A stretch of 64,000 nucleotides of DNA from Bdellovibrionales bacterium (GCA_965243065.1 CBDETO010000005.1:1883520-1947519); one strand, 5' to 3'; positions 8,477-64,000 are shown, counted from the stretch's first letter. The notes: generated by a model not told the origin, from the letters alone. A program made the numbers and translations.

Positions 8477-8611
8477 GGAATGACAGTGCTTTCGCGAGGA
8501 CAAGCTCCACGAGGACAAGTTTCGCGAGATCTATGTCCTTTGCCCTGTGTTTCTTCGCTCCCAAACCTCTGGTTATGTGGCTCACCCACGAAATGACGCT
8601 CCTTGTCCTGG

Positions 8612-12602: not shown

Positions 12603-13595
12603 ATGTCAGAACAAAACACACATCGCAGAAATAAACCAGAAAAACTTGAACTTCCAGAGCTTCCGAAAAACAATCAAGGGAAAAGAACACTAAAAAATCC
12701 ACAACCTCCATTTAGTTGGACTCTGCAACAAATGAAAGCTGATGCTGAAAACCAGATATTCCAGAGGCTAATTGATAATAGAAGAAATCTTATAGGACAG
12801 ATCGAAAAACTCAGATCATCAAAAGTTATTGTTTATTATTCTGTTCATCTTCTTGATTCTGAAGATTTTGAAACAATCTTTGACCTTTTAAATACTCTAG
12901 GAAAACAAAAAAATCTTGATTTATATATTTTAAGCCCAGGAGGTTTTGCTCACCCAGCTTATAAAATTTCTCGCCTTTTTCAAAGTTATAGTGAAGATAA
13001 ATTCTCAGTTTTAATTCCTTACTATGCTAAAAGTGCTGCAACTATTTTGTCCTTAGGTGCTGATGAAATTGTCATGGGTCCTGCATCAGAATTAGGTCCC
13101 ATTGATCCTCAATTTAGGATTTCTAATAATTCTCCTTCTATATCAGCTTTAGCTCTTAAAGAAGCTCTTGATTATATTACTAAAGCGATAAAAGAAGATT
13201 CAAAAATAGCTCCCCTCTATGTCCCTTTATTGGATAAAGTAGATTTAATAACATTAGGTCATTTTGAACGGGAAATAGAAAGTGCAAAGCAATACGGAGA
13301 AATTCTGTTAACTTCCAAAAAAAAGAACCCATTAACAGAAGAGAAAGCAAAAACAGTTGCTAATGACTTTGTCCAACAATATAAGACACATGGTTTTGTA
13401 ATTGATGGGCAAGCTGCCTCTTCTTTGTTAGGTAAAAATACTATCAAGTTAATTAGTGCGGATGATCCTACTTGGCAATGTATGTGGCAATTACATAATA
13501 CATATAATCAATATATAAAAGATAAAAAAACAACTGTTAAGCTCATTGAAACTCTTAGTGCATCATATGAAAAAGGGAATCAGAAAGTAAAATGA
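12603..13595 (+). CDS. ClpP/SppA-fold serine protease of the SDH (serine dehydrogenase proteinase) type
   Basis: 330 aa. LDLYILSPGGFAHPAYKISRLF and IPYYAKSAATILSLGADEIVMGPASELGPIDPQ match the Clp-fold peptidase core as I remember it (Ser in KSAAT as nucleophile). Confidence 0.65.
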   Translation: MSEQNTHRRNKPEKLELPELPKNNQGKRTLKNPQPPFSWTLQQMKADAENQIFQRLIDNRRNLIGQIEKLRSSKVIVYYSVHLLDSEDFETIFDLLNTLGKQKNLDLYILSPGGFAHPAYKISRLFQSYSEDKFSVLIPYYAKSAATILSLGADEIVMGPASELGPIDPQFRISNNSPSISALALKEALDYITKAIKEDSKIAPLYVPLLDKVDLITLGHFEREIESAKQYGEILLTSKKKNPLTEEKAKTVANDFVQQYKTHGFVIDGQAASSLLGKNTIKLISADDPTWQCMWQLHNTYNQYIKDKKTTVKLIETLSASYEKGNQKVK

Positions 13596-15585: not shown

Positions 15586-15660
15586 GCCCATGTGGCTCAG
15601 TGGTAGAGCACACCCTTGGTAAGGGTGAGACCGTGGGTTCGATTCCCGCCATGGGCTCCA
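15586..15660 (+). tRNA. tRNA-Thr (anticodon GGT), CCA encoded
   Basis: Acceptor GCCCATG/CATGGGC, anticodon stem CACCC/GGGTG, loop TTGGTAA, T-arm GTGGG-TTCGATT-CCCGC. Confidence 0.9.
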
Positions 15661-15916
15661 AAGAAAGAAAGAAAGAAAGATGTGGTTCAGCGGGTCCGGG
15701 CCCACCCTTGTTAAGGGTATGGCCCGTGGGTTCGATTCCCGCCATGGGCTCCAAAGAAAAGATGTAGCTCAGCGGGTCCGGGCACCCCCGTTGTTAAGGG
15801 TATGGCCCGTGGGTTCGATTCCCGCCATGGGCTCCAAAGAAAGAAAGAAAGATGTGGTTCAGCGGATCCGGGCCCACCCTTGTTAAGGGTATGTCCCGTG
15901 GGTTCGATTCCCGCCA
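15661..15916 (+). repeat. Three tandem tRNA-Thr-derived pseudo-tRNA units separated by (AAAG)n spacers
   Basis: Units share the exact tRNA-Thr 3' half CCGTGGGTTCGATTCCCGCCATGGGCTCCA. The 5' acceptor strand is replaced (AAAGATG vs GCCCATG), the D-arm is altered, and the anticodon loop is TTGTTAA. ORFs 15680-15886 and 15852-16061 are artefacts of this repeat. Confidence 0.8.
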
Positions 15917-35920: not shown

Positions 35921-35948
35921 GTTATTAGATTCCTGCTTTTACGGGAAT

Positions 35949-37060
35949 TGTAAATGTTCACAAATTCGCTGACAAAATTGAGTTTATAAGGGAGCGTTAG
36001 AAAGCTCTAAATAACCCAAGATAAGGAGGCGAGTTATGAGGGATAACACACAAGATAAGACCCTATACAGGAACTATATTAGTAAGTGGCAGTATATGAT
36101 AAAAGACTATGAGTTAGTAAAGAGGAAGAAACATCCAAAGTTTCGATTTGTAAGTGATTTTTACAAATTCCATAAAACTAATCGTCAGACTTTTTTAAAA
36201 TACTATCATCGCTATTTAAGTCATCCTACAGAGGGGAGTCTTGTTCCTCGTAAGAGAGGTCCTAGATGGAGGTTAAGAAGGGGGGATAATAATAGCTATA
36301 TTGAGCAGGAGGTGCTAAAACACAGGGAAAATGGTGTTAATAGATACGAGATGTGTCATATACTAAACCCTCTTCTTAAGCAAAGGGGAGAGGTTCCGAT
36401 ATCGGCTAGTACGGTATATCGTATATTCAGGAGGAAGGGGGTAAATAAGTTGAAGCCGAAGATGATAGAGAATAAGCGCAAGATAATAAAGGAGAAGGCG
36501 GGGGAGTTAGGTCACATAGACTGCCATCATTTGGGTAAGGACATGATAGTGAAGTCAGGGGGTAAGAGGTACTATTTGGTGTGTGTTATAGATGATTGCA
36601 CGAGGATAGCTTGGGCTGAAGTGGTGGAGGATATAAAGAGTCTTACGGTGATGTTTTCGTGTTTAAAGATTTTTAATGTATTGAGCAAGAAGTATAAGAT
36701 GGAGTTTAAGGAGGTTATGAGTGATAATGGTTCAGAGTTTTCTTCTCGTAATAATCAGTTATCGCATCCGTTTGAGAGGATGTTGTTGGAGTTGGGGGTA
36801 AGGCATAGATATACAAGGCCGTATAGGCCACAGACGAATGGGAAGGTGGAGAGATTTTGGAGGAGTTTAAATGAGGATTTAATAGAGGGGAGTGTATTTG
36901 AGACGATAGAGGAGTTCAAGGATGAATTGGAGCAGTATTTGATATACTATAATGAGTTTAGACCTCATCAGGGTTTGAATCAGAAAACACCTCGGCAAAT
37001 GAATAACTCTTGTGAAAGAGTGAAGAAGTGATTCTGTCAGCGAATTAGTGAACACGTACA
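35949..37060 (+). mobile_element. IS481-family insertion sequence, copy 2
   Basis: Co-linear with copy 1 (offset 28584). One difference noticed in the right end (gattCtgtcag). Flanked by GGAAT at 35944-35948 and 37061-37065. Confidence 0.85.
36036..37031 (+). CDS. IS481-family DDE transposase (copy 2)
   Basis: Protein identical to 7452-8447. Confidence 0.9.
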   Translation: MRDNTQDKTLYRNYISKWQYMIKDYELVKRKKHPKFRFVSDFYKFHKTNRQTFLKYYHRYLSHPTEGSLVPRKRGPRWRLRRGDNNSYIEQEVLKHRENGVNRYEMCHILNPLLKQRGEVPISASTVYRIFRRKGVNKLKPKMIENKRKIIKEKAGELGHIDCHHLGKDMIVKSGGKRYYLVCVIDDCTRIAWAEVVEDIKSLTVMFSCLKIFNVLSKKYKMEFKEVMSDNGSEFSSRNNQLSHPFERMLLELGVRHRYTRPYRPQTNGKVERFWRSLNEDLIEGSVFETIEEFKDELEQYLIYYNEFRPHQGLNQKTPRQMNNSCERVKK

Positions 37061-37113
37061 GGAATGACAGATCTTTCGAGGGTTAGGACTATTTCAATGG
37101 CCGACTAATAACT

Positions 37114-41749: not shown

Positions 41750-41839
41750 GCTTTGCTTCTATACGAGGCTTTGCTTCTATACGAGGCTTTGCTTCTATAC
41801 GAGGCTTTGCTTCTATACGAGGCTTTGCCTCCTATTCTC
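41750..41839. repeat. 18-bp tandem repeat GCTTTGCTTCTATACGAG x4 + 1 degenerate
   Basis: Read directly. ORFs 41629-41841 and 41753-42019 are repeat artefacts. Confidence 0.85.
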
Positions 41840-42334
41840 AATATTTGTTTGTTTCAATTTGATACAAATAAGAATCCTTTTATTGAGGAAGATTTATTTT
41901 TATTTACCTTTCTAGAATTTCTATTTTCATTAAAGATTAAAAGAACTTACTTATATATCTTGTTTTTAAAAATGAGGGTAGCTCAGCCTATTGAGCTTCA
42001 TAAACTAAATATGGACTAAATATTTTATTTGTTAATTAATTTTTTTATGATAGCCTTAATTATAAGGTCATGCTTTTAAGGGTTTTCTTGTTTTAATGAT
42101 GATGGGCTTTTGTGTATCTTTTTGGAGGCCAAGGACACTTTTCAGTGGAAAAGAGGAGTCAAAAAATTTAGATTGCTATAGATCTGTCATTTCTGCGGAA
42201 GATTGTCATTCCCGCGAAAGCGGGAATCCAGATCTGCTAAACTGAAAGCCCCTAGCTTATTCATCTCAAAAAATGGGAAAAATTTTTATAAAATAGAGTT
42301 GACAAGGATGTTTAAAATATGAATATTGTTTTTA

Positions 42335-42446
42335 ACATACATACATACATACATACATACATACATACATACATACATACATACATACATACATACATAC
42401 ATACATACATACATACATACATACATACATACATACATACATACAT
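42335..42446. repeat. Tetranucleotide microsatellite (ACAT)28
   Basis: 112 bp, perfect. ORFs 42286-42486 and 42319-42963 (YIHT / MYVC repeats) are artefacts. Confidence 0.95.
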
Positions 42447-42489
42447 AAAGTATATTCATTTCTTCTTCTCCCGTTTTTTTCAACATGTC

Positions 42490-42637
42490 CTTTTCAAGAG
42501 AAAAGAAGAGTCAAAAACTCAGACATGCGTTTTGCCACAAATATGTCATTCCCGCGAAAGCGGGAATCTAGTTGCTCTTGTGCTCAAGCTTGTCCTCGTG
42601 AAAACGGGGATCCGACTCGCTTTTTCCTCTTATTCTC
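42490..42637. mobile_element. MITE-like element M3 (148 bp)
   Basis: CTTTTCAAGAGAAAAGAAGAGTCAAAAACTCAGACATGCGTTTTGCCACA ... TCCGACTCGCTTTTTCCTCTTATTCTCTTCTGAAAAG. Carries two inner hairpins. Confidence 0.6.
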
Positions 42638-43123
42638 TTCTGAAAAGATGTTGTTTTCTATATACGATCGTCAGGCAGAGTACTGTGGCTTTATACCGAA
42701 CGGGTATAGCTGTGGAAACCTATCTTTTCAACAGAGTTGATATAGTGAAGAAGCTCTGTTTCCATTTTTTATGTCATTTCACAAAACAAATTATACCGGT
42801 TCGGTACGGGATTCCTGTTCTTTGTTTTTACGAGGACAAGCTTCACGGGAAGGACAAACATTTACAGGAATATTGTCATTTCTACAAAGTATGTCATGCC
42901 CGCGGAAGCGGGCATCTCATAAGCTACGGCTTTGTCACCTCCGCGAAAGCGAGGGTCTTATAGCTACGAGGAATAATGATCTATGAGTAAAAATATGTTC
43001 TTCAGGAAAACAGTGTTACCTTTCTGGATTCCCGCTTTCGCGGGAATGACAGTGCTTTCGCGGGAATATTGTCACCCCCGTGAAAACGGGGGTCTTGTTC
43101 ATTTACTGGATTCCCGCTTTCGC

Positions 43124-43644: not shown

Positions 43645-45405
43645 GTGTCTATATACAAGAATGTAAGAAAGTTTTTGGTCAAAGTATTTAGTAAAAACAA
43701 AGAAGGATCAGCGGCCATTATTTTATCTTTGATGGTTTCGGCAGGGGTGCTCAGCACCATTTACTTTACTCAAAAAATGACAGGGGGTTTTTTATCTGAG
43801 CATTCACAGTCTATAGAGGAATGGGAAAAGCATTTGGTAACGGAGTCGGCTCAAACCCTGGCAGCTTACCTGGTGGCCAATAATCTTATTCTTTGTCGTC
43901 AAGATGGTTGGACGGGCAAGCAATCTAATTGTAAGTGGACTCTGGCCCCTAAGACAGAGAGTCCTGCTGATTTTCATTTATCGGATGAAGGGGACTCAGC
44001 AGAGGGGCTATCCTATAAAGGTAAATACACTTTGGATGATGTGGAGAAGGAATATAAAGTGACTTTTCAGTTGGTGGATTGGCGGAGCACCTCTATAGAG
44101 AATTTGATTGGTGATGTGCCGGAGGCGGTTTGCAGAGATAAGAACACTTTGGAAGTGATTAGTGATGCGTCTTGTTTAAAGTATGAGGATTCTACTGACC
44201 CGATTAATCAGGTTTGTCAGGTGAGCGGCAGTGATGACAGTGATACACTCTGTGAATATATAAAACCGGTAGATGGGGACTATTGGATTGTTTTAACAAA
44301 AGTGGAGGTGGATTATAAAGACCCTGTCTCCAAGGCGGATTTAAAACATGTAGCTTTGTCAGGGATAAGGCGTCCTTTAAGTTCTATTAAATTCGGTATG
44401 ATTGTTTCTGGAAGGAAGTGCTCTTTAAGTTGTCCAGGGGGTGTGCAGGCCAATTCGTTCACTCAGTGTCGAGGTTCGTTCCTACCTACAGAGGCAGGAG
44501 AATATACAGGTACAGCCTCTAATATAGTATCTATAAAAAACGAAGGGCCAGGAGCCATCTACTCTCTTTCTTTATTGAGGGAGTCTGTTGGGTTGACGGG
44601 AATTCAAGATTCTTACGAGGAAGATGTGACATCGGATATAGTTAAAGAAGCCAAATCCACAGAGCAGGTGTTTTTGCCTAATGAAACCATAACATTTGAG
44701 TATTTTTATGATTGCCCTGTAGAAGTAAGAAGATCCATTGTATATAAGACCGGGGACCAGGATCGTGTGGAGGTAACAAGTACCACTAAAGATGTTCCTT
44801 TTGAGCAGTTTTCATACTCGCTTAGTTTTGATGCCGATGATCCAGCGGGAGTTTGTTACAAAACTGAGGCATCCCCTGATTTGCCAGACAAAACGCACGA
44901 AGATGTCGATTTTGTAACTATGAGCAGTCCGCGTTTGGCTTCGGCTTCTTGTACTTTAGGGGACACGGCTTGTAGTGCAGGAGGAAGTACCGGAAGCTGT
45001 AAGTTTGCAGGTTTAGAGCCAGCCAGAACATTTATAATTCCTTTAGAAGTGACTGCCCAACATTTAGGTCTTGTTAAAGAAATTGTGACTACGATTACAA
45101 AAAAAGAAGTACCGATGATTATTACTAACGTTACAGATGGTGGAAGTTGTTGTAGTGGTTGTAGCGGCAACCCACACAACGGTAGCTTCAGAGACAGATG
45201 CGATGGTAGAAATGGCCCCGGCTACAGCGGCGGCGGAAGTAGCGGCGGCGGAAGTAGCGGCGGCGGAAGTAGCGGCGGCGGAAGTAGCGGCGGCGGAAGT
45301 AGCGGCGGCGGAAGTAGCGGCGGCGGAAGTAGCGGCGGCGGAAGTAGCGGCGGCGGAAGTAGCGGCGGCGGAAGTAGCGGCGGCGGCTATGGAGGACCAT
45401 GGTGA
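43645..45405 (+). CDS. Large Cys-rich exported protein (586 aa) with TadG-like hydrophobic N-terminus and C-terminal (SGGGS)10 repeat
   Basis: GTG start with AAGGAGG RBS. N-terminus KNKEGSAAIILSLMVSAGVLSTIYF resembles the TadE/TadG-like N-terminal segment. Many Cys. No enzymatic motif recognised. Confidence 0.6.
   Translation: MSIYKNVRKFLVKVFSKNKEGSAAIILSLMVSAGVLSTIYFTQKMTGGFLSEHSQSIEEWEKHLVTESAQTLAAYLVANNLILCRQDGWTGKQSNCKWTLAPKTESPADFHLSDEGDSAEGLSYKGKYTLDDVEKEYKVTFQLVDWRSTSIENLIGDVPEAVCRDKNTLEVISDASCLKYEDSTDPINQVCQVSGSDDSDTLCEYIKPVDGDYWIVLTKVEVDYKDPVSKADLKHVALSGIRRPLSSIKFGMIVSGRKCSLSCPGGVQANSFTQCRGSFLPTEAGEYTGTASNIVSIKNEGPGAIYSLSLLRESVGLTGIQDSYEEDVTSDIVKEAKSTEQVFLPNETITFEYFYDCPVEVRRSIVYKTGDQDRVEVTSTTKDVPFEQFSYSLSFDADDPAGVCYKTEASPDLPDKTHEDVDFVTMSSPRLASASCTLGDTACSAGGSTGSCKFAGLEPARTFIIPLEVTAQHLGLVKEIVTTITKKEVPMIITNVTDGGSCCSGCSGNPHNGSFRDRCDGRNGPGYSGGGSSGGGSSGGGSSGGGSSGGGSSGGGSSGGGSSGGGSSGGGSSGGGSSGGGYGGPW
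45226..45387 (+). repeat. Perfect 15-bp tandem repeat AGCGGCGGCGGAAGT x10 (+12 nt), in-frame (SGGGS)n
   Basis: Read directly. Other-frame ORFs 45137-45430 and 45188-45424 are shadows. Confidence 0.95.
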
Positions 45406-49014: not shown

Positions 49015-49147
49015 AGTGTGAGTCTTTTATTTTGGAAAAACATTTCGAAGATGAATAAATCAGAGAGGGAATTTGTCATTCCCGCGAAAGCCCTGTCATT
49101 CCCGCGCAAGCGGGAATCTAGTAAATGAACGAGACCCCCGCTTTCGC

Positions 49148-49265
49148 GGGGGTGACAGAAAAGGCGGGGGTGACAGAAAAGGCGGGGGTGACAGAAAAGG
49201 CGGGGGTGACAGAAAAGGCGGGGGTGACAGAAAAGGCGGGGGTGACAGAAAAGGCGGGGGTGACC
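49148..49265. repeat. 18-bp tandem repeat GGGGGTGACAGAAAAGGC x6.5
   Basis: Read directly. It abuts the stop of the convergent MFS gene. ORFs 49073-49291 and 49125-49589 are artefacts. Confidence 0.9.
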
Positions 49266-51647: not shown

Positions 51648-52565
51648 TCATGATTGAATGGCAGAGTAAATCCAAAGGTCAAAAACAGGGGCCCAAAGGA
51701 ACAATAATACGCTAAAGTTCAACCATATAAAAAAAGGCTTCCATTTTAATTTTTTGGAAAACTTTATAAATTCCAAAAATACTTTTATACAAAAAGGAAC
51801 CAGGATCAAAATATAAATCACATTCATTTTAAAAAACAAAGGGGAAAGAAGAGCTAATCCCAGATAAGATAATAAATAAAAACCCATATAATAAAATGTT
51901 TTATTTAAGCCTAAGTTAAGAGGGAGAACAGGAATACCTGCTGACTGATAGTCTTTCTTATAGTGTAAAGCAAGGGACCAAAAATGGGGCATCTGCCATA
52001 AAAAAAGGATAAAGAATAAATAAAGACTTTCTATGGAGAAAATGGAGGAAGAGGGAACAGAATAACCAATCATTACAGGTAAAGCTCCTGGTAAGGCTCC
52101 TGGAACCGCAGCAAAAGCCCATTTTTTCTTCCAAAAAACAGTGTAAAAAAAATTATAAAGTAAAACCGCTAATAAAGCGAGACCGGCTGTTAAAGGTTTG
52201 AGTGCTAATAGTGTCAGCAAGCCTAAAATAACTTGGGTGACCCCTAGAGCAAAAGCTTGAAGAGCCGTTATTTTCCCACGAGGCACGGGCCGTTTTTGGG
52301 TGCGTTTCATTATGCAATCCAGACGCCACTCGTAAGATTGGTTGAGAGCAAAACTACCGCTGACCACCAGATATAAACCTGCTAACAACCAAAGAAAAGG
52401 CCAGGGAACAGCAGATATAGAAACCACATATTCCGCCTTCGAAGACAAGGCTAAGGTGTAGCCAGCCCCCGCACTCACTAAAGCAAAAAATACAATACCG
52501 GACTTGGTAAGCTTAAAGTAGTCTTTTAGAGAAAAATACATAATATTTTTACCCTTCGGTCTCAT
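51648..52565 (-). CDS. ctaB: Protoheme IX farnesyltransferase (heme O synthase)
   Basis: UbiA-family motif NQSYEWRLDCIMKRTQKRPVPRGKI, multi-TM. The ATG at 52541 (AAGGG RBS) is a likelier start than 52565. Confidence 0.85.
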   Translation of the reverse strand: MRPKGKNIMYFSLKDYFKLTKSGIVFFALVSAGAGYTLALSSKAEYVVSISAVPWPFLWLLAGLYLVVSGSFALNQSYEWRLDCIMKRTQKRPVPRGKITALQAFALGVTQVILGLLTLLALKPLTAGLALLAVLLYNFFYTVFWKKKWAFAAVPGALPGALPVMIGYSVPSSSIFSIESLYLFFILFLWQMPHFWSLALHYKKDYQSAGIPVLPLNLGLNKTFYYMGFYLLSYLGLALLSPLFFKMNVIYILILVPFCIKVFLEFIKFSKKLKWKPFFIWLNFSVLLFLWAPVFDLWIYSAIQS

Positions 52566-52639: not shown

Positions 52640-52951
52640 TTATAGGACGGAAGATTCAGGAACACGGGTTATGATGTCCATTTCACAGAATAAGAAGAGA
52701 ACAACGAGTAAAAACACCCCAGTTAAAAAAATCACGGGAAATAATTTGTTATCGTATTTTAAGTGCATGAAAAAAAGTAAAACTAAAGCCGCTTTTACTG
52801 TAGCAATACCCATAGCTATAAAGGTATTTAACATGCCAAAATCCAGTTGAGCTACTACTACAGTTAAAAATGTTAAAACCAAAAGGCTCAATAACACTTT
52901 AATATAGAGGTTAAGAGGAACAATAGGGTGATGTATAGTGCTTGTATTCAT
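52640..52951 (-). CDS. Prokaryotic cytochrome oxidase subunit IV family protein
   Basis: 103 aa, 3 TM. KAALVLLFFMHLKYD motif typical of the CyoD/CtaF family. Confidence 0.7.
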   Translation of the reverse strand: MNTSTIHHPIVPLNLYIKVLLSLLVLTFLTVVVAQLDFGMLNTFIAMGIATVKAALVLLFFMHLKYDNKLFPVIFLTGVFLLVVLFLFCEMDIITRVPESSVL

Positions 52952-52964
52952 TGTCTTTATTTTT

Positions 52965-53969
52965 TTATAAGGTGTCTCTGTTACAATTTACTGTCTTGCA
53001 AAGAGTGTCACATACTGTTTCATTAATTTTTTCATTCCTTGTGAAGTGCGAATCGTAAAAGTCTCCATCTTCGTTTATTTTCCCCCAATGATTCCAAACA
53101 TTAGGGCCATGAACATAGCAATGTAGCGACCTACTAAACCGTTGATCACTGGCATAATGACACTTATTTCGCCTACTCAATTGGTTTTGATATTCCTTTC
53201 GAGAACAATACACTTTTAATTTACAATTTTTGGTTGAGCAAGTATTTTTTAATAAATTATGAAGGGCAATAAAGGCAAAGGGGTTGTCTTCATTGCTGGC
53301 GATGCTCAAGAAGGTATATCCTGATCCCTCCAGGTTTTCCCCAATTCCATATTCTATAGAACTATTTCCCTGACCCTCTCCTAGTTTTTTAAAACTGGCT
53401 TTTAAAATTTCACTTTCCTTATCGTGGTGCACGATAGCTAAAGCCACTGATTTTGTCTTAGCCACCCAAAACAAAAACTCCCCTACTTCCCGTTGAGACC
53501 AATCCTTTATAAGTTTTATAACCGGGGCCGTGTCAATATCAATCATAACACCAAAATTCCATTCATTTACTTCTCGGTCTAGATAATCTTCTCTGGCCTT
53601 AATATGGGTCATTTCTGAGAACAGCTGATCTAACTTAGATATGAGATCTATGGGTAGTTTTTCGCATTTACTCGATTCATTTCTATATACTTTTTCACAC
53701 TGATCTGTGCATTCTTTGTACTCTTCGCTTTTTTCGTCATCTTTCCTAAGATCTTTACAATAAGGACCTGTATAGTCGGAGAAAATAAAGCGACCATAGT
53801 AATCATCATCAGTCATGGATCGAATAGGTGAACCTTCTTTATCGCTGATGCGCTCACGAGCCGCGCGTTCTCTTGCTGTCTCTTCTGGGTTATTACAATA
53901 AAGTAGTAAGACAGAAACCAGCAGTAAAACCAATAATATTTTTATGTGTTTTAAAATCTGGATAACCAT
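52965..53969 (-). CDS. Cys-motif lipoprotein/secreted protein, paralog family member P1
   Basis: Signal/lipobox LLLYC. YCKD...CTDQCEKV...KCEKLPIDLISKL...REVGEFLFWVAK. Shared architecture with 54011-54952 and 58312-59406. Confidence 0.6.
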   Translation of the reverse strand: MVIQILKHIKILLVLLLVSVLLLYCNNPEETARERAARERISDKEGSPIRSMTDDDYYGRFIFSDYTGPYCKDLRKDDEKSEEYKECTDQCEKVYRNESSKCEKLPIDLISKLDQLFSEMTHIKAREDYLDREVNEWNFGVMIDIDTAPVIKLIKDWSQREVGEFLFWVAKTKSVALAIVHHDKESEILKASFKKLGEGQGNSSIEYGIGENLEGSGYTFLSIASNEDNPFAFIALHNLLKNTCSTKNCKLKVYCSRKEYQNQLSRRNKCHYASDQRFSRSLHCYVHGPNVWNHWGKINEDGDFYDSHFTRNEKINETVCDTLCKTVNCNRDTL

Positions 53970-54010
53970 ACATATATTCCTTATGTGTGCTTCTCATCGG
54001 AAATTAGGGT

Positions 54011-54952
54011 TTATTCACAACCTTTATTATCATCTTTACAAACAAAACCACAGACATCGTTATTCATGATGGGGTCTATTAAAATGGTCCCTAAACCCCC
54101 TGTGCGTAATATTTCTTTTTGTATATGATTAAAAAAGTCTTCATCTTTTATGTTTCTAGCTATTTCATTTCTTAAGTCTTCCGAGTGGATATAGTTATCA
54201 TCTTGTTGTTCTTTACAATAAATTCTTAGTATGCAAGTTTCTATGTGACGAGTTCCTACATAAGAAAAAGAGCAAAGGTCTGTTTTAATCATTTCATGGG
54301 TCATCTGTAGTAAGTCATAATTAGAGTGGAAAACAATAAGCTGAAAGAAGCTTTCGTCAAAAGAGATTTTTTTAGCAAGACCTTCTTCTACAGCAAAACC
54401 CGTATCTCCTTGCGGTCCACCATATCGGCTACGATCTCCCACAGAAGCTAACATTTCATAGATCATTTCATTTCTAACTGGTTCTTTAAATAGAAGCAGC
54501 TCATTTACAGGTGCTTTGTTTGTGGTGAACCATATTATAAGCTCTCTTGCTTCATCTATCGTATAAGCTTGAATGATTCTAACTAGAACCTTATAGTCCA
54601 AAGCTAACAGAAGACGAAATTCCTTTTGGGGATTAATAAATTCTAAAGACCGGAGAACGGGATTTTCCAGTAAGGGTATTAAATCTTCTAAATCAGCAAT
54701 AGTATCTTTGGGCAAAGAACGACATTGTTTCCTGACTTTCTCATTTGATTTATGGAAAATACGGTTACAAATTTGTTTGCACTCTCTATGTTCTGAACAA
54801 CAGTTATCCCCCCTGCAAAAAGAAGCCAAGGGTTTTCCGGCACGTACTCCATCTGCGATATCTTCGGTATCGCCCACTCCATTAATAGGAGGAGGGGAGC
54901 ATTGAGTGAAAAATAAAAAAGATATAACACAGGTAAAAAGCCATAATCTCAT
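54011..54952 (-). CDS. Cys-motif lipoprotein, paralog P2
   Basis: ATG 54952 preceded by AGGAG (track start 54970 is GTG). Lipobox FFTQC. FCRGDNCCSEHRECKQICNRI...QCRSLPKDTIADL...EARELIIWFTT. Confidence 0.6.
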   Translation of the reverse strand: MRLWLFTCVISFLFFTQCSPPPINGVGDTEDIADGVRAGKPLASFCRGDNCCSEHRECKQICNRIFHKSNEKVRKQCRSLPKDTIADLEDLIPLLENPVLRSLEFINPQKEFRLLLALDYKVLVRIIQAYTIDEARELIIWFTTNKAPVNELLLFKEPVRNEMIYEMLASVGDRSRYGGPQGDTGFAVEEGLAKKISFDESFFQLIVFHSNYDLLQMTHEMIKTDLCSFSYVGTRHIETCILRIYCKEQQDDNYIHSEDLRNEIARNIKDEDFFNHIQKEILRTGGLGTILIDPIMNNDVCGFVCKDDNKGCE

Positions 54953-55342
54953 AGTAAGTCTCCTAACCACTTTAGAAAAGTTTATTTTATTTTTTCATAG
55001 CCTTTAAAAACAGTCAAATATAAGTCTCTAGTTTTTTCGTTAGATTTTAAAGAGTATCTATCTGCTGCTGCCTGTTTCGCTTGTTTTTTACAGCCTTTAA
55101 TCCAGTAGAGATAAGGTGTTTCTTCTTTTTTATCGTAGGACATTATAAGGACCGGGGATTAAGAATTGGGTGTTGGGGAGCAAGGATCAAACCATAAAAG
55201 TATAAGTGAAAATTTTTCACTCTTTATATATATTGTCAGGCAGTATTGCCTGCGCACAAGTGGGGGTAGAGGGATTTCGTCCCCCGGAGCAAGCTTTACG
55301 AAAATGACAGTTCACCTACCCTCACTAGTGGGAACGGGGATT

Positions 55343-56605
55343 CTATACCGGTTTGGTATAAAAAAAGCTCAAAATCTTTTCTAAGGCGGATGCAATAGGC
55401 ACTTTTTCTCGCTTTCCCGTTGGGCGTGTTACTAATTCCACCAGGTTCTTTATTCTGTCTCTAGTGCCTAGATTAATCCGTAAAGGAAAACCTAAAAGGT
55501 CAGCATCTTTGAACTTCACTCCTGGTTTTTCATCTCTATCATCTAAAAAAGTATCTATTCCTTTTTTACATAGAGATTGATACAGGTGATTTGCTAAATC
55601 CCTTGTTTTTTGATCTTCTGGATCCAACAAACAAATATGCACCAAAAAAGGGGCTATGGCTTTGGGCCATATTATACCGTTTTTGTCATGGCTATGTTCC
55701 ACTACAGCTTGAATTGTGCGGGTAATACCAATGCCATAACAACCCATCTTTACTGTTTGTTTATTTCCTTGTTGATCTAAATAATGGAGCTTCATTTTTT
55801 TAGAATATTTATCTCCTAGATAAAAAATGTGTCCCACTTCAATCCCCCGGCAGGAACGAAGCACTTGGTTATCAGGTCCTTTATCCCCTGGTTTGACATC
55901 AGGACATATTTCCTTGTTAGCAGCAAAAGAATCTGTGAATAAAAGTTCATCTTCTCCATGCTCTGCTAAAATATGAAACTCCTCTGATAGATCTCCTCCT
56001 ATTTCTCCACTGTCTGCTTTTACCGCGCGAAAAGGTATATCTAATCTGGAAAAAATAGCCTGATATACGGACTCCATTTTTTTATAACTTTCCTTGGCTT
56101 GCTCTTCATTGAGATCAAAGCTATAAGCATCTTTCATAATAAATTCTCTAGCTCTCATAAGACCAAAGCGCGGACGGATTTCATCTCGAAATTTATTTTG
56201 AATTTGATAGAGACAAAAAGGAAGATCCCGATAACTGTTGATATTGTTTTTTATGTAATTTGAAATCACTTCCTCATGGGTGGGGCCTAAGCAAAACTCC
56301 TGACCCGTGCGGTTTTTCATTTTTTGTAGAAGATCCCCATATATGTGTAACCTTTCACTCTGTCTCCAGAGTTCTGTGGGCTGCACCATAGGCATAAGGA
56401 TTTCCACACAGTTCTTTTTGTTTAATTCTTCACGAACTATGTTTTCAAACTTGTGAATGGCCCTAACCATAAAAGGCCCATAAGTGAAAATACCGGAAGT
56501 GAGTTTTTTAATAAAACCTCCTCTTACCAATAAAGCATGGCTGGGTAGGGCTGTATCTGCCGGAACTTCTTTTAAAGTTTTTACTCCTGTTTTAGACCAT
56601 TTCAT
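55343..56605 (-). CDS. proS: Prolyl-tRNA synthetase, bacterial-type but lacking the INS editing domain
   Basis: LKEVPADTALPSHALLVRGGFIKKLTSGIFTY, GPTHEEVI, FRDEIRPRFGLMRAREF, RGIEVGHIF. 420 aa, with about 15 aa where the ~180-aa INS domain of E. coli ProRS lies. Confidence 0.9.
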   Translation of the reverse strand: MKWSKTGVKTLKEVPADTALPSHALLVRGGFIKKLTSGIFTYGPFMVRAIHKFENIVREELNKKNCVEILMPMVQPTELWRQSERLHIYGDLLQKMKNRTGQEFCLGPTHEEVISNYIKNNINSYRDLPFCLYQIQNKFRDEIRPRFGLMRAREFIMKDAYSFDLNEEQAKESYKKMESVYQAIFSRLDIPFRAVKADSGEIGGDLSEEFHILAEHGEDELLFTDSFAANKEICPDVKPGDKGPDNQVLRSCRGIEVGHIFYLGDKYSKKMKLHYLDQQGNKQTVKMGCYGIGITRTIQAVVEHSHDKNGIIWPKAIAPFLVHICLLDPEDQKTRDLANHLYQSLCKKGIDTFLDDRDEKPGVKFKDADLLGFPLRINLGTRDRIKNLVELVTRPTGKREKVPIASALEKILSFFYTKPV

Positions 56606-56611
56606 AATATA

Positions 56612-57061
56612 TTACTGCTCCTGTCTTTGTTCTTCTTCCAGAAAAGAAAGCATTTTTAAAGCAGTTTGAACAGATAAACGGGCTATATGTCCTTTTTCTC
56701 CCCCGGACCGCGCTAAGGCTTGTTCTTTACTTTCTGTCATAAGTATTCCAAAAATAATAGGGCGGTTCATTTTTAATTGCACCTGCATACACCCCTGCTC
56801 CACCATCCGACAGCAAGCATCGAAATGAGTTGTCTCTCCGCGAATCACAGCCCCCAGGGCAATAACAGCTTGATAGTTTTTTTGAAACAGCCATTGGGCT
56901 GATAAAGGGATTTCCACCACTCCCGGCACTTCTCTTATTTCAAAGTTATGGATACCGGTTTTTTTTAATTCATCTAATGCTCCTTCTTTTAATCGAGCAG
57001 AAATATCTAAGTTGAATAAAGATAGCACTAAACCTATTTTTTTTAGCTCTTTTTTTTTCAT
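56612..57061 (-). CDS. ribH: 6,7-dimethyl-8-ribityllumazine synthase
   Basis: VPGVVEIP, LGAVIRGETTHFD. Confidence 0.88.
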   Translation of the reverse strand: MKKKELKKIGLVLSLFNLDISARLKEGALDELKKTGIHNFEIREVPGVVEIPLSAQWLFQKNYQAVIALGAVIRGETTHFDACCRMVEQGCMQVQLKMNRPIIFGILMTESKEQALARSGGEKGHIARLSVQTALKMLSFLEEEQRQEQ

Positions 57062-57359
57062 ATCTATACTGATCTTGTTTAATCTCCGTTTTCAGGAAAA
57101 TGGGGAACAAAAATTCTATACCGGATCGGTATATTTGTATATGTTTTTTTAATGAGATAATATCGTTTTTTTGAAAAATTTATCAACTTCTTTGAAGATA
57201 ATACCGATCCTTAGAAGGAGGGGTGTGACATAGAAAGTAAGAGTATGTTATACCGAACCGGTCAGGAATGGGCGACACCTGCACTTCGTTCACTCTTGGG
57301 AAGGAGCTTCCCGTAGGAAGAAGTTTACAGAAATCATAAAATTCAAACAGGATCAGTAT

Positions 57360-58100
57360 ATGTCATTAATTCATAAAAATCACATAGAACACAAAACCAG
57401 CTTTTCAAGTGATAGGGAAAAAATGTGGCAGTTTTTTTTTCAATATCTTCGTCATAGAGGCATTTATGCCAGTCTCGTTTTTTCCTTTAATGCGTGCCGA
57501 GAGTGGCTGTGGTTTGCCTCCCATAGAAAAACGGCGGCTAATTTAATGAGCATGAATCTTATTGAAAAAGATCTGGAAAGCCATAAGCATGCTACCTATT
57601 ATGTTCCCACCCCGATTATTCCCTTTTTCAAGCTGATAAAAAGCTTAACTCTTTCTCCCTCTTCTGTGTTTGTGGATTATGGGGCTGGTAAAGGTCGGGC
57701 TATGATTTTAGCCGCAGAAAGTGGTGCTTTTTCTAAAATAAAAGGTTTAGAATTTAGTCCCTCTTTATTTGAGATAGCTCAGGAGAATATCCAGTCTTAC
57801 AAAAATAGGACCGGTCAAAACTGTTTTGAATTAATGCACGCTGATGTATTGACATATCAGGTTCAAAAGGAGGATAATTTCTTTTATTTTTTTCATCCCT
57901 TTAATGATGATATGTTAAGCGCGTGTTTGCAGAATATTTATCTTTCTTTGAAGGAGCATCCCAGAAAAGTTTTGTTAGTTTATCAAATTAACTCTCGAGA
58001 AAATACAAGTCATATCACAAAGGATGGAGTCTTTAAATTATTGAAAGCTTTTTTTTCTTATGGTGTGCGATTTTATATTTATGAACATTTCCCCGACTGA
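57360..58100 (+). CDS. Class I SAM-dependent methyltransferase
   Basis: Motif I VDYGAGKGRAMILAAE. 246 aa. Confidence 0.6.
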   Translation: MSLIHKNHIEHKTSFSSDREKMWQFFFQYLRHRGIYASLVFSFNACREWLWFASHRKTAANLMSMNLIEKDLESHKHATYYVPTPIIPFFKLIKSLTLSPSSVFVDYGAGKGRAMILAAESGAFSKIKGLEFSPSLFEIAQENIQSYKNRTGQNCFELMHADVLTYQVQKEDNFFYFFHPFNDDMLSACLQNIYLSLKEHPRKVLLVYQINSRENTSHITKDGVFKLLKAFFSYGVRFYIYEHFPD

Positions 58101-58311
58101 TATAGGAGATCACCGCTTTACTGCCATTTATCCTTATAGGTAGAATTTCAATACCTACATCAATAGTAACCAAACATTACCTGAGCTTTGTATTTTTCAA
58201 AAATAGGAGAGTTTAAAACTCCAAAAATGGAGTTTAATAGCTTGTAAAATAGAAAATTTGAACTTATACTTGATCGGATTGAACATATATCCGTTTGCTG
58301 AGGAAGATAAA

Positions 58312-59406
58312 ATGTGGAAATTAATATTATCTATTTTAATAGGTTTTGTTCTCCTATTAAGTTGTCATCAACACAATACAGATGGTCCTCCCGAAGGAAC
58401 TCCTGTTGGGTCTGATGAGGGCCAGATAGAAGGACCCACATTAAATGAGGGGGATAATCCGCTTTTTACTTCTTTTACTCTTCCAACCTGTTCAGAAAAT
58501 GATTGTTGTTATAAAAACACAGATTGTTTTTCACAGTGTGAGAGTCTATTTCCTTTAGGGGAGGATAAAAAAAGATGTTTAAAATTACCTATAGAGTGGG
58601 TAGATAAAATGCAGGAAACTGTAGATAGTAATTTAAAAGATCCAAAATGGGATCATCTAGTATATATGGAGTTATCTGTCTTTTGGTCTATATTAGCTAT
58701 TTCTGAAAAGCCCTGGTTAGATAAAATAAGTGATTATAATAATAGAGAAGCGCGCCAGGTCTTGTACTGGCTAGCCTCCCAACCAGATATAAATGAGAAA
58801 GTTTTAAGTCATCTGCCAGGTCATCGGATACGATCACTGTTTTTGGCTTTATTTAGAAAAAACACCCGCTCTACATTGTTGGATGATAACGCTTTACTTT
58901 CTAGCCTGAAAGAACCCATAGAAGAAGATCAAAATACTTTTTTTGAAATAGCTGATAAGGTTAATAATAGTCTTATATCTATAGTGCATGAGCAGATTGT
59001 GGCTAAACATCTTTGTGATTATTCTATCAATCATCCCCGGCCTGTCCATTATATCAGTGATAGCCGTTATCAGGCTTGTGTGTTAGCTGTTTATTGTTAC
59101 ATTACAGGGGTTTATACAGAGGATTCGTATATGGTCACCAAAGAAAATGGTCGAAACGGACAAGTGTTGAGGGAGCGTCTGGCTAATGAATGGGAGGAAG
59201 ATAGTAAAGAAATAACTGATTTTATCGAGGCCCCCAACGATAAAGGAGGACTGGGAATTATGGATAATGCGGATGATTGGCCTGATGCAGCTTGTGTAAA
59301 ACTGAAGCAACTATGGGATGATGGGAACCTCAAATTTGGATTGCAGCAAAGGGAAAGGCCCTCTTGGTGGTTTCCTGAGTTTGAAGACGCGTATTATTGG
59401 GAATAG
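58312..59406 (+). CDS. Cys-motif lipoprotein, paralog P3
   Basis: ATG 58312 with GAGGAAG RBS (track start 58258 is TTG). Lipobox LLLSC. TCSENDCCYKNTDCFSQCESL...RCLKLPIEWVDKM...REARQVLYWLAS. Confidence 0.6.
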   Translation: MWKLILSILIGFVLLLSCHQHNTDGPPEGTPVGSDEGQIEGPTLNEGDNPLFTSFTLPTCSENDCCYKNTDCFSQCESLFPLGEDKKRCLKLPIEWVDKMQETVDSNLKDPKWDHLVYMELSVFWSILAISEKPWLDKISDYNNREARQVLYWLASQPDINEKVLSHLPGHRIRSLFLALFRKNTRSTLLDDNALLSSLKEPIEEDQNTFFEIADKVNNSLISIVHEQIVAKHLCDYSINHPRPVHYISDSRYQACVLAVYCYITGVYTEDSYMVTKENGRNGQVLRERLANEWEEDSKEITDFIEAPNDKGGLGIMDNADDWPDAACVKLKQLWDDGNLKFGLQQRERPSWWFPEFEDAYYWE

Positions 59407-59436: not shown

Positions 59437-59523
59437 GATGTCCACTCTTGCGAGGACGGGGTACTGATATTTCCAAACTTTCTAAGCCAGCTTTAACGAT
59501 GTCCACTCTTGCGAGGACGGGGT
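59437..59523. repeat. Two 26-bp direct repeats GATGTCCACTCTTGCGAGGACGGGGT separated by 35 bp
   Basis: Copies at 59437-59462 and 59498-59523, between convergent genes. Each can form a short bulged hairpin (GTC..CTC-TTGC-GAG-GAC). Confidence 0.8.
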
Positions 59524-59591: not shown

Positions 59592-60785
59592 TTACTCTTC
59601 AGGGTTTGGATCTATTGGTTCGTCTATCGTTGTTGTTTCTTCTATTTTCTCTTCTTCTGTTTGCTCCCCCTCTTCTAAAGCTTGTTCGGCTGCTTGTTGG
59701 ATACGAGCATCTTCCATTGGATTTTCAAAAATATCATTTACAGATTCTACTTCTTCGATCATTTGAGGTTCAAAATGTTCTGTCGGCTCATTAAAAATTT
59801 CATCCACCTTTTTCTTCTTATGTCCACCTAGGGCTATAATTACAGAAGCTAAAAAAGTGTAGCCCCTGGAATAATTTGTGCCATTGATGTCAATATCTCC
59901 AGAAAGTCGTAAAGTGACATAAGGAAAATGCCAGCCTAACCATCCTGTAAAGCCAATTAAACCGGGGTTAGTTGAAAAAAATTTTAAGCTGCCAGCATTA
60001 ACGCGCTTGAGTAGATTAGTTCTATCTCCTAATACAGAAGAGGATTTATCCCTAGCTATAGACCAAAAACCATAAGAATAAAAGCCTATTTCAGCTATAT
60101 CCGACTTTAACATAGCCCCTGCTTTCCATTGTAAAATGGAGGATAAAGCCTGCGAGCGTATTTTAAAACCTCCATAAATAAAAGGATAAAACACCTCTCC
60201 AACGGCTCCATAAATCCATAAAGAAGGGGTAAAATGCAGACTTGCATCATCTGTAATGGGCTTTTCCGTTTGCGTTTTTATGGCAAAAAAAGGAAAAGAA
60301 AAACTAAACTCGGGTATAAAACCAAAGACTTTAGCTATTCTTTGTTGACTGCGAAAGGCTAAACCTGCCCTTTTTATTTGAGGTCCTGAAAAGCGCAAAC
60401 TTTCCCCATTTCCGCTTTGAGCAAACCAAAATCCGCTGGAAAACACCTCTACTTCAAACCAATTAGTGAGGCTATACCCTAAACTTAACTCCATATTCAT
60501 ATATTGAAAAAAAGGAGGGGAGGCATTGCTGTCAAGACCAAGGACCTGACGCAGAGGCTGAGAGGTAAAATTCTGTGTATAATTACTTTCTGTATAATAA
60601 TATCCTGTATTAAATTCTGTGTGAAATACGCCCCCACCACGGGAGAGAGGGAGAGTGAGGGAATCTTCTTGTGCTTTTAGTGAAAAAGGCGTGAAAACAA
60701 GAAAAAGGATGAAAAAGCAGGGATTTACTATCAAAAAATCAGGAATAGTACGAAGGATTATAAGAAATACATTTTTTAATTTCAT
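59592..60785 (-). CDS. Hypothetical exported protein, possibly an outer-membrane beta-barrel, with acidic C-terminal tail
   Basis: Start at ATG 60785 (MKLKNVFLII...FSLKAQ signal). Alternating aromatic/Gly-rich segments. C-terminal E/D-rich tail. No motif recognised. Confidence 0.45.
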   Translation of the reverse strand: MKLKNVFLIILRTIPDFLIVNPCFFILFLVFTPFSLKAQEDSLTLPLSRGGGVFHTEFNTGYYYTESNYTQNFTSQPLRQVLGLDSNASPPFFQYMNMELSLGYSLTNWFEVEVFSSGFWFAQSGNGESLRFSGPQIKRAGLAFRSQQRIAKVFGFIPEFSFSFPFFAIKTQTEKPITDDASLHFTPSLWIYGAVGEVFYPFIYGGFKIRSQALSSILQWKAGAMLKSDIAEIGFYSYGFWSIARDKSSSVLGDRTNLLKRVNAGSLKFFSTNPGLIGFTGWLGWHFPYVTLRLSGDIDINGTNYSRGYTFLASVIIALGGHKKKKVDEIFNEPTEHFEPQMIEEVESVNDIFENPMEDARIQQAAEQALEEGEQTEEEKIEETTTIDEPIDPNPEE

Positions 60786-61092
60786 ATTGATTTTTATGGG
60801 ACCTTTACCAAAATGCAATATTTTGGTGCTGTCACGAACTCCTATAAGGCCTGTCAATCAAACAAAAATCTGGCAAATACAATAATTATTTTAATATTAA
60901 GATGAAATAAGCCGAAAAATCAAGGTGAAAACAGGAGAATGAAAATAATACACTCATTAGCCGATAATAGGATCTTGATACTTCTGTGATTTAAAACTTC
61001 CTGGTTTTTACAGCTAATAAAAAATTTATATAGATAAGGGCTGAGAAATTTTAAAAGTGGGTGTTCTTTATTCAATATTTATTTGAGGGAAT

Positions 61093-63021: not shown

Positions 63022-64000
63022 TTAAAATAAATATCGCCGATAGGAAACGGAGGAGATGACTCCTAATGCTGTCATCGTAGTTAATAGACTAGAACCTCCA
63101 TAAGAAAGGAGAGGAAGAGGGATCCCTACAACCGGTAAAATCCCCATAGTCATCCCAATATTGATAAACATGTGCCAGAACATATAAAAAGACATTCCTA
63201 CACAAAGGAATACTCCTACTTTGTCCTTGGATTGAAAAGCGGTGTGAAATCCAATGATAATTAAAAATAAAAATAATAAAATAGTGATCACACTGCCAAC
63301 AAACCCATGTTCTTCGCTTAAAACACTGAAGATAAAGTCTGTGTGACGCTCTGGTAGAAATTCCAATTGTGATTGGGTGCCTTTTTGAAATCCTTTACCT
63401 AAAAATTGTCCACTACCTATAGCAATTTTTGATTGAATTGTATTATAACCCGTTCCTCTAGGATCTCGTCCAGGAGAAATAAAAGTTAAAATTCTGTTTT
63501 TCTGATAATCTTTTAAAATAAACTGCCAGGCGATAGGGGAGATAGATAAAATAAAAAAAGTCAAAAAAAGTAAAATGTTTTTATGTACTTTTGCAAATAT
63601 GATGATAGAAATGGTGATAATGAGTATCATTAAAGCTGTCCCTAGATCGGGTTGAGCAATAATTAATAACACCGGAAGAAGAATAAGACATAGAGGTTTT
63701 ATCAGTTCTGTTAAGGTCATAGCTCTCCAGCTTCTCTTTGTTGATAGGAGACGAGCTAAAATAAAAATGAGAATGATTTTAAATGTCTCAGAGGGTTGAT
63801 AATTAAATAGCCCTAAATCCAACCATCTTCTGGAACCGCTGAGAACATTACCAAAAAAAGAAACCATAATTAAAAAAGTTAAATTTAATCCATAAAGGAT
63901 ATAGGCTACTCTTGTAAAGATGTGATAATTAATAAGCGAAATCAGAAGGAAAGTGCCTATACCCAGGGAGATCCAAATAAGTTGAAGATAAAATAAATGA
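63022..64000 (-). CDS. rodA: SEDS-family peptidoglycan polymerase RodA/FtsW, 3' part; N-terminus lies beyond the right edge
   Basis: RRWLDLGLFNYQPSETFKI, LPERHTDFIFSVLSEEHGF, GILPVVGIPLPLLSYGGSS. The frame stays open upstream of the track's Met to position 64000 (own translation ...LFYLQLIWISLGIGTFLLISLINYHIFTRVAYILYGLNLTFLIMVSFF). Confidence 0.85.
   Translation of the reverse strand, partial: HLFYLQLIWISLGIGTFLLISLINYHIFTRVAYILYGLNLTFLIMVSFFGNVLSGSRRWLDLGLFNYQPSETFKIILIFILARLLSTKRSWRAMTLTELIKPLCLILLPVLLIIAQPDLGTALMILIITISIIIFAKVHKNILLFLTFFILSISPIAWQFILKDYQKNRILTFISPGRDPRGTGYNTIQSKIAIGSGQFLGKGFQKGTQSQLEFLPERHTDFIFSVLSEEHGFVGSVITILLFLFLIIIGFHTAFQSKDKVGVFLCVGMSFYMFWHMFINIGMTMGILPVVGIPLPLLSYGGSSLLTTMTALGVISSVSYRRYLF

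Follow-up and report, generated by a model that had tools for sequence, protein, structure and literature searches.

A 64,000-nt stretch of DNA from a Bdellovibrionales bacterium (GCA_965243065.1, CBDETO010000005.1:1883520-1947519; hereafter the window, with positions counted from its first letter) carries three genes for cysteine-rich proteins with apparent export signals, close to genes for a cytochrome-oxidase subunit and heme O synthase. An initial annotation, made from the sequence without database searches, had presented the products, here called P1, P2 and P3, as distant lipoprotein paralogues and had hinted at a link to respiration. What are these proteins, and does their position tell us anything about what they do? 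The answer that we favour, with moderate confidence, is that they are all-alpha modules of the envelope, located outside the cytoplasm, tethered to the membrane and stapled by disulfides; that they belong to an ancient gene array; and that P2 and P1 act together as a pair in a structural or binding role.

Three anciently diverged members of one family

Open reading frame (ORF) calling returned the three genes at the places where the initial annotation had put them. They are listed here with the region preceding P2.

52965-53969, minus strand: P1, 334 aa; second gene of the P2-P1 pair, 41 nt downstream of P2
54011-54952, minus strand: P2, 313 aa; first gene of the conserved P2-P1 pair
58312-59406, plus strand: P3, 364 aa; last gene of the array in relatives
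54953-55017, minus strand: leader of the P2-P1 unit, with a putative promoter (TTGACT-17-AAAAAT with an upstream TG) followed by AGGAG; from a consensus scan and reading of the sequence alone

The ATG of P2 at 54952 has an AGGAG motif 7 nt upstream, with an alternative GTG at 54970 possible; that of P3 at 58312 has GAGGA 8 nt upstream, and that of P1 at 53969 is preceded by AAGGA. The promoter remains putative, as a consensus scan is no evidence of function. P1 and P2 are in tandem on the strand of the oxidase-related genes, as had been described; P3, which had been placed in the same cluster, lies 3.4 kb away from P2 and is encoded by the other strand.

Common ancestry of the three proteins was confirmed at low sequence identity. 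BLASTP aligned them over 256-295 columns at 18-23% identity, with E values of 2e-9 (P1-P2), 2e-13 (P2-P3) and 2e-11 (P1-P3). Comparison of a P2-orthologue profile with a P1-orthologue profile by hhalign gave a probability of 98.75% (E 1.4e-16, 224 columns), and a hidden Markov model (HMM) of the three proteins, run against the 244 six-frame ORFs of the window, matched P1, P2 and P3 only (next best E 0.17). The sharing of motifs, when checked by alignment, proved to be far above chance, and the motifs make up the conserved core of the family. Two of them had been misread in detail: the late cysteine pair is real, though spaced C-x4-Y-C and not CxxxYC, and the core motifs of the helical block are real, though P2 reads DEARELIIW, with DEAR instead of REAR.

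When a family HMM was run on all fetched loci and the matches were clustered, P1, P2 and P3 fell into three separate, anciently diverged orthologue groups of one family. Mean identity within groups is 0.44 (P1), 0.50 (P2) and 0.39 (P3), against 0.17-0.21 between groups. The P2 orthologues (n=37) are 39-90% identical and the P1 orthologues 45-85% identical; the P3 orthologues are P0001, P0003, P0004 and P0006.

Distribution of the family

Word-indexed searches returned 20 and 37 relatives, unnamed or labelled "hypothetical protein", from metagenome-assembled genomes (MAGs) of Oligoflexia/Bdellovibrionales. A HMMER scan of 1.84 billion cluster representatives with a 58-sequence profile gave 697 matches at E<=1e-3 and 497 at E<=1e-10, all of them unnamed. 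Scanning the GTDB species genomes yielded 12 loci, each recorded as "MAG: Bdellovibrionales bacterium"; eight are complete chromosomes of 1.41-2.31 Mb. The GC content of the loci ranges between 33 and 46% (37.6% in the window), and a sequence identical to P1 is on record from an Oligoflexia MAG. The search across taxa that had been proposed thus places the family, so far, only in small-genome bacteria of the Bdellovibrionales/Oligoflexia type known from metagenomes. Sponge Bdellovibrionota MAGs have been described as having small genomes, low GC and CRISPR-Cas (clustered regularly interspaced short palindromic repeats and associated genes), traits that match those found here (PMC9944714).

Some relatives carry extra C-terminal modules: P0156 has a leucine-rich-repeat-like tail (with a sub-threshold LRR_8 match), and P0179 and P0122 have tails rich in Cys or in beta structure, that of P0179 being Cys-rich.

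Export signals and a tether predicted to be disordered

Each of the three proteins begins with a basic n-region and a hydrophobic h-region that run up to a conserved Cys; the sequences preceding this residue are MVIQILKHIKILLVLLLVSVLLLY in P1, MRLWLFTCVISFLFFTQ in P2 and MWKLILSILIGFVLLLS in P3. The residues next to the Cys are LLY in P1 (LLY-C25-NN), FTQ in P2 (FTQ-C18-SP) and LLS in P3 (LLS-C18). A lipobox had been attributed to all three proteins; strictly, only P3 satisfies the canonical [LVI][ASTVI][GAS]-C, P1 and P2 being non-canonical at position -1. The signal Cys of P1 and P2 nevertheless aligns with the canonical lipobox Cys of other members, and 94% of near-full-length members have a Cys in this column (conservation was counted throughout over 148 such members among 213 aligned sequences, in P2 numbering).

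Of the 168 members with a Cys in the lipobox column, about half have S, G or A as residue -1; Q, Y or N is found there in the P2 and P1 groups. The surroundings of the Cys are characteristic for each group: [F/L][V/I][Q/N/H/R/K]-C-S-[P/A] in the P2 group, L-L-Y-C-[N/D/E/Q]-[N/D] in the P1 group and L-L-[S/A/G]-C in the P3 group. The leaders of two relatives, P0086 and P0091, seem to be of the signal-peptidase-I type rather than the lipoprotein type.

The signal Cys is followed by a tether of about 28 residues in P2 and about 45 in P1. These segments overlap stretches predicted with low confidence or as disordered (predicted local distance difference test, pLDDT, below 50-65), which span residues 16-30 of P2 and 21-61 of P1. 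The lipobox Cys lies at a distance of 39 residues from the C58 column for members of the P2 group, 58 for the P1 group and 54 for the P3 group; the median for the rest of the family is 53. A long segment predicted to be disordered at this place suggests that the domain is held well away from its membrane anchor.

A cysteine pattern indicative of structural disulfides

The conserved core of the family consists of C51, C58-x3-C62, C77 followed by LP, W141, N211, H219, C227, C240-x4-Y245-C246 and C301. Conservation of individual residues is as follows.

C58, C62, C77 and C246: 100%
C240: 99%
C227: 98%
C301: 95%
C51: 91%
C305: 65%
C46 and C52: 61% each
C312: 57%
N211: 97%
W141: 96%
Y245: 92%
H219: 89%
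R261: 82%

Counted from the lipobox Cys onward, P1 and P2 have 13 cysteines each and P3 has 11, that is, one plus an even number (12, 12 and 10 beyond the signal Cys); the family mode of total Cys is 13. Moreover, the less conserved cysteines come and go in pairs. Presence or absence covaries strongly for C46/C52 (r 0.72) and C305/C312 (r 0.85) and more weakly for C51/C301 (r 0.38) and C227/C240 (r 0.40), and an insertion specific to P1 adds exactly two cysteines (C270 and C284). The even number and the pairwise gain and loss argue for structural disulfides in an exported protein instead of a metal or redox site. The sequence pattern points to five or six disulfides per protein, which would tie both the C-terminus and the central helices to the Cys-rich segment at the N-terminus. 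That the proteins of this family are exported and disulfide-bonded we consider highly probable.

A predicted all-alpha domain without recognisable relatives

The AlphaFold2 model of P2, built with 38 P2 orthologues, is all-alpha with 18 helices and was predicted with confidence (pLDDT 86.4; predicted template-modelling score, pTM, 0.83). The P1 model, built with 16 orthologues (pLDDT 74.5, pTM 0.72), is likewise all-alpha and collinear with that of P2. The mature P1-, P2- or P3-type protein is thus predicted to fold as one compact all-alpha domain of about 250 residues. An hhalign self-comparison with alternative alignments gave no internal repeat (probability 0.6%); there is thus no detectable solenoid.

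No family in Pfam-A or NCBIfam matched P1, P2 or P3 at E<=0.1. Ten long or distant members gave no match to these collections except for the sub-threshold LRR_8 and AtDEF-like matches in P0156, and no weak match was common to more than one of 22 diverse members. Sequence-profile searches of the PDB gave best E values of 0.67 (alignment A2) and 0.021 (alignment A4). With Foldseek, the best E value for the P2 model was 0.15 in the PDB (template-modelling, TM, score <=0.27) and 0.46 in BFVD, and that for the P1 model was 2.2 in the PDB; the noise in these searches consisted of generic helical-repeat (ARM/HEAT/PUF-like) proteins at TM scores of about 0.1-0.3. The statement that the fold is not a known one covers the PDB and, for the P2 model alone, BFVD.

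The family is thus unannotated and new, and its fold is possibly new. The initial annotation had recognised no function and had named a match to a known domain as the outcome that would undo its proposal; all the searches above were negative in this respect, and the structure prediction that it had called for gave a confident P2 model with no counterpart in the PDB or BFVD. Having no name, no detectable relative and a confident model that matches nothing in the PDB, the family is a clean target for structural genomics and for the definition of a new domain family.

Two candidate functions were considered and dropped. The conservation of Asn, His, Tyr, Arg and Trp within an all-alpha fold resembles the alpha/alpha-toroid lyases; a polysaccharide lyase-like site was rejected, as no PDB lyase came up in the Foldseek search. 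Binding of heme through His219 and Tyr245 was discarded as pure speculation.

An ordered array with an invariant P2-P1 pair

In relatives, members of the family form arrays whose full order is g11-g9-g8-g10-P2-P1-g6(-g6)-P3, the symbols standing for orthologue groups. The longest arrays have nine consecutive members (locus L002) and eight (L004), and members of the P3 group terminate the arrays of L002, L004 and L010. The most constant feature is the central pair: at every one of the 14 distinct loci, P2 has P1 as its immediate downstream neighbour on its own strand. The interval between them ranges from -16 to +84 nt, with an apparent overlap of stop and start codons in L004, L011, L012 and L013. 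Five relatives (P0086, P0091, P0100, P0177 and P0179) are fusions with two domains in a single chain, which fits with domains of this family working in pairs. We take joint action of P2 and P1 as a tentative proposal, its chances falling a little short of even.

Both ends of the array have recurrent neighbours. At one end g11, a short member of about 240-260 aa, lies directly downstream of a gene for a DivIVA-domain protein, in the same orientation:

L002, 2548-3848: g11 with divIVA
L004, 864-2421: g11 with divIVA
L008, 18650-20094: g11 with divIVA
L010, 8412-9873: g11 with divIVA

The other end is seen in the window itself:

59592-60857, minus strand: outer-membrane-protein (OMP)-like protein of 421 aa, convergent with P3; secreted, rich in aromatic residues, Gly and Ser, with an acidic C-terminal tail of about 80 residues
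61093-63015, plus strand: response-regulator-DnaJ protein (Pfam), end of the ancestral array
63022-63867, minus strand: RodA/FtsW-family protein (Pfam), end of the ancestral array

The 421-aa protein has no match in Pfam, NCBIfam or the PDB. Its orthologue directly follows the P3-group gene wherever such a gene was found (window, L002, L004 and L010) and is 68-72% identical in L002 and L004. The succession of OMP-like gene, response-regulator-DnaJ gene and rodA is common to the window and to loci L002 and L004; pbp2 was seen as the gene after rodA in L002, the locus whose flanking genes are labelled by Pfam. No gene outside the family is linked to P2-P1 in all of the genomes compared.

Two exact 26-nt copies of GATGTCCACTCTTGCGAGGACGGGGT (59437-59462 and 59498-59523, plus strand) lie 61 nt apart between the stop codons of P3 and the OMP-like gene. 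Each copy can form a short hairpin, the window holds no further copies and none would be expected by chance; the pair may be an element of the repetitive extragenic palindromic type or a terminator element.

Given these neighbours, we considered whether the proteins could regulate envelope growth in the manner of LpoA and LpoB, as tethered lipoproteins that reach peptidoglycan synthases or division proteins. LpoA/LpoB also combine a long disordered tether (25-45 residues in the present family) with a compact domain, and in several genomes the array lies near rodA-pbp2 or divIVA: g11 next to divIVA in the four loci listed, and the P3 end abutting the OMP-like gene, response-regulator-DnaJ gene and rodA in three. 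However, this linkage to peptidoglycan genes is lost in deeper relatives, as no rodA, response-regulator-DnaJ or OMP gene is found within 10 kb of P2-P1 in L011-L014, L001, L006 and L008. Nor is there homology, since Pfam, NCBIfam and Foldseek disclosed no similarity to LpoA, LpoB or LpoP and the PDB contains no match to the all-alpha, disulfide-rich fold; in addition, nine paralogues far exceed the copy number of known activator systems. Altogether, we judge regulation of this kind to be improbable.

The position next to cytochrome-oxidase genes

In the window the P2-P1 pair is followed, on the same strand, by two genes that are not members of the family:

52640-52951, minus strand: coxIV, caa3-type oxidase subunit IV (Pfam, NCBIfam)
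51648-52565, minus strand: ctaB, heme O synthase (Pfam, NCBIfam)

The stop codon of P1 and the start of coxIV are separated by 13 nt, in which the terminator scan found no terminator-like site. Read-through from P2-P1 into coxIV is thus likely in this genome, although this is no evidence of a shared function. Accessory factors of cytochrome c oxidase, serving in copper or heme delivery or in thiol-redox assembly, would account for the head-to-tail arrangement P2-P1-coxIV-ctaB, which recurs in locus L003, and for proteins rich in Cys with conserved His and Tyr. They would also recall known assembly factors (Sco, PCuAC, CtaG/Cox11, twin-CX9C/CX3C) by their Cys motifs, including a helical C-x3-C.

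The comparison across genomes speaks otherwise. Only two of the loci, those of the window and of L003, have coxIV, ctaB, proS, ribH and the methyltransferase gene around P2-P1. L003 belongs to a close relative (P2 90% identical), where P3 no longer lies beside the methyltransferase gene; at the 12 other distinct loci no cox, ctaB, proS or ribH gene is found within 10 kb. The proteins match no Pfam or NCBIfam model for Sco, PCuAC, CtaG/Cox11, Surf1 or CtaA. Their predicted fold is neither thioredoxin-like nor cupredoxin-like, hairpins of the CHCH type are far smaller than a domain of about 250 residues, and the even Cys count with paired gain and loss is a pattern of disulfides and not of metal ligands. 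Besides, the 64-kb window has no coxI, coxII or coxIII gene. Because the linkage is not conserved, the hinted connection to cytochrome oxidase, heme or copper was rejected; we give an accessory role in oxidase assembly almost no credence and consider it largely refuted.

The restriction of these flanks to the window and L003 identifies the arrangement as a recent rearrangement, in which the P2-P1 unit was turned round with respect to P3 and came to lie ahead of coxIV-ctaB. Its position beside the cytochrome-oxidase genes is a local accident.

Two further observations were made in this region. coxIV and ctaB sit alone in the window, apparently read through from P2-P1. Compared with its approximately 91%-identical L003 orthologue, the proS product of the window (55343-56605, minus strand; 420 aa) lacks a block of 156 residues between residues 235 and 236. 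This is probably the insertion/editing domain, which seems to have been lost recently and in frame. Between 51 and 60 kb, neither the Rfam nor the tRNA scan gave a match.

Purifying selection on P1 and P2

When the window is compared with L003, the ratio of nonsynonymous to synonymous substitution rates (dN/dS) of P2 is 0.128 and that of P1 is 0.202. Ten neighbouring genes, among them ctaB, coxIV, ribH, proS and the genes for a glutathione S-transferase, a major facilitator superfamily protein, the methyltransferase and a zinc-ribbon protein, give values of 0.096-0.213. The P1 and P2 genes are thus real and constrained by purifying selection. The initial annotation had called the family old and diversifying. 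The first part is upheld by the ancient divergence of the paralogue groups; the second is not, since P1 and P2 fall inside the range of their neighbours and one-to-one orthologue groups keep a fixed order across about 13 genomes. Low dN/dS and a conserved order of orthologues indicate that the family is old yet not currently diversifying, and the traits of an antigenically variable or diversifying surface lipoprotein (raised dN/dS, fast copy turnover) are absent for P1 and P2.

These data bear on two alternative explanations. In the first, the proteins would act separately as adhesins or receptors that bind host or prey molecules at the surface or in the periplasm, each with a ligand of its own, and the operon order would merely reflect history. 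The long flexible tethers, the extra C-terminal modules of P0156, P0179 and P0122 and the presence of up to nine paralogues per locus would all suit such proteins, as would the restriction of the family to reduced, probably host-associated or predatory Bdellovibrionota (for background see PMC9944714). Purifying selection and strict one-to-one orthology are, however, atypical of variable surface adhesins, and the universal adjacency of P2 and P1, their start/stop overlap and the two-domain fusions favour joint action. Independent binding proteins are, on this evidence, unlikely, yet with a share of the probability that has to be reckoned with.

The second alternative is that the proteins are immunity or inhibitor lipoproteins that guard the envelope of the producer against secreted hydrolases or effectors. 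In other bacteria, periplasmic immunity genes that are paralogous and arranged in tandem do occur, and the present proteins are small, paralogous, arrayed and apparently directed to the periplasm. Furthermore, predators that secrete hydrolases of the cell wall are relatives of this lineage (for context see PMC9944714). Yet the array is not interspersed with genes for effectors, toxins or hydrolases, nor is any such gene a consistent neighbour, and a fixed order of orthologues under purifying selection is unlike the turnover of immunity islands. A role in immunity is very improbable.

Proposed organization of the P2-P1 module

We therefore return to the proposal of tethered, disulfide-stapled envelope modules, which would work as follows. 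Each protein would be exported via its lipoprotein-type signal peptide and anchored by its N-terminal Cys, from which a disordered tether of about 25-45 residues would extend. The tether would carry an all-alpha domain of about 250 residues held by five or six disulfide bonds, making this a protein of the oxidising cell envelope with neither a redox nor a metal centre. The ancestral locus would have held up to nine paralogues in set order, between divIVA and the block formed by the OMP-like gene, the response-regulator-DnaJ gene and rodA-pbp2; in the lineage of the window, P2-P1 would then have been inverted, separated from P3 and moved before coxIV-ctaB. P2 and P1 would be an obligate pair, co-transcribed and often translationally coupled, plausibly a heterodimer, and would contribute to the envelope by binding or as a structural element.

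The location of the two partners might differ. In E. coli, the residues at +2 and +3 decide between sorting of lipoproteins to the inner and the outer membrane. If the "+2 Asp" rule of that organism is applied, P1 (Y-C-[D/E/N/Q]-[D/N]) would be kept in the inner membrane and P2 (Q-C-S-P) would go to the outer membrane, though the rule may not hold in this phylum. With P1 in the inner and P2 in the outer membrane, the pair could bridge the periplasm, or it could form a surface coat or attachment device. A more elaborate possibility is that the array encodes the subunits of an undescribed hetero-oligomeric envelope structure of reduced-genome Bdellovibrionota, with P2 and P1 as its core and with a new fold. 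We think this rather unlikely; if true, the hetero-oligomer could serve a host- or prey-associated life.

Several points weigh against the proposal of a tethered structural pair. Tyr or Gln at position -1 is unusual for substrates of Lgt and LspA, and under the canonical rule lipidation of P1 and P2 is doubtful. The argument for a P2-P1 complex consists solely of gene adjacency, coupling and fusion proteins. N211, H219, Y245 and R261 are polar and conserved and could mark a catalytic or ligand site that a purely structural reading would miss. Finally, cellular proteins outside the PDB and BFVD may include a structural relative.

The bacteria concerned are uncultured, sponge- or invertebrate-associated relatives of predatory bacteria. 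That up to nine constrained, ancient copies are kept in genomes of 1.4-2.3 Mb suggests that the family probably matters for their lifestyle, and it could become a marker of the envelope biology of this clade. It has no bearing on a long-standing open question, and the suggested link to respiration has failed.

Comparison with known systems

In their manner of working, the closest counterparts are lineage-specific multigene lipoprotein families, although the defining feature of no named family is present. The spirochaete families, such as the all-helical Borrelia PFam54/CspA-type proteins, are likewise clade-restricted, exported, lipobox-bearing, largely helical and clustered, show no enzymatic signature and have lipoboxes relaxed in comparison with the E. 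coli consensus. They differ in that neither their sequence nor their fold matches the present family. Spirochaete lipoprotein families are also Cys-poor, against 10-12 structural Cys here, and they are plasmid-borne, variable and diversifying, in contrast to chromosomal genes in fixed order under purifying selection.

The combination of P3 with the 421-aa protein, an all-alpha lipoprotein encoded beside an OMP-like gene, is reminiscent of SusD/RagB systems. However, no SusD, RagB or TPR match was obtained for the family, the OMP-like protein has no TonB-dependent-receptor signature, and there is one OMP-like gene per array.

Other features of the window

The window also contains mobile and possibly defence-related DNA. 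Two copies of a 1155-bp insertion sequence (IS) with an rve-type transposase (7340-8494 and 35924-37078, plus strand) are 99.3% identical and in direct orientation; copies this similar indicate that the genome carries mobile DNA. The pair brackets about 27 kb, including the tuf-nusG-rplKAJL-rpoBC block. Type I-E CRISPR-Cas genes (cse2, cse1 and cas3) occupy 672-5524 on the minus strand, and no CRISPR array was seen in the window. An 877-aa NB-ARC/STAND nucleoside triphosphatase (9302-11935, minus strand) is encoded near an SDH-type ClpP-like serine protease (12603-13595, plus strand); lying beside the cas genes and an IS element, this region may be a defence island.

At 15586-15916 on the plus strand, a tRNA-Thr gene (15586-15660) is followed by about three degenerate tRNA-like units of 83 nt, which are 82-87% matches and were not called as tRNA by ARAGORN or Rfam.

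The segment between 40600 and 49300 is dense in perfect tandem repeats:

42335-42447: (ACAT)28, at the 5' end of the ORF at 42319-42963
41750-41828: 18-mer, 4.4 copies
49146-49264: another 18-mer, 6.6 copies
45226-45386: 15-mer, 10.7 copies, inside the ORF at 43645-45405

In the same region a 20-nt unit, TGTCATTCCCGCG(C/A)AAGCCC, recurs in both orientations, and Pfam gave no match for two large ORFs of 586 and 1194 aa.

Finally, base composition shifts along the window. Most of the first 14 kb has a GC fraction of 0.31-0.34 with negative skew, against 0.36-0.44 with strongly positive skew (up to 0.30) between 14000 and 50000, and the change falls together with the block of genes for translation and transcription, which are highly expressed.

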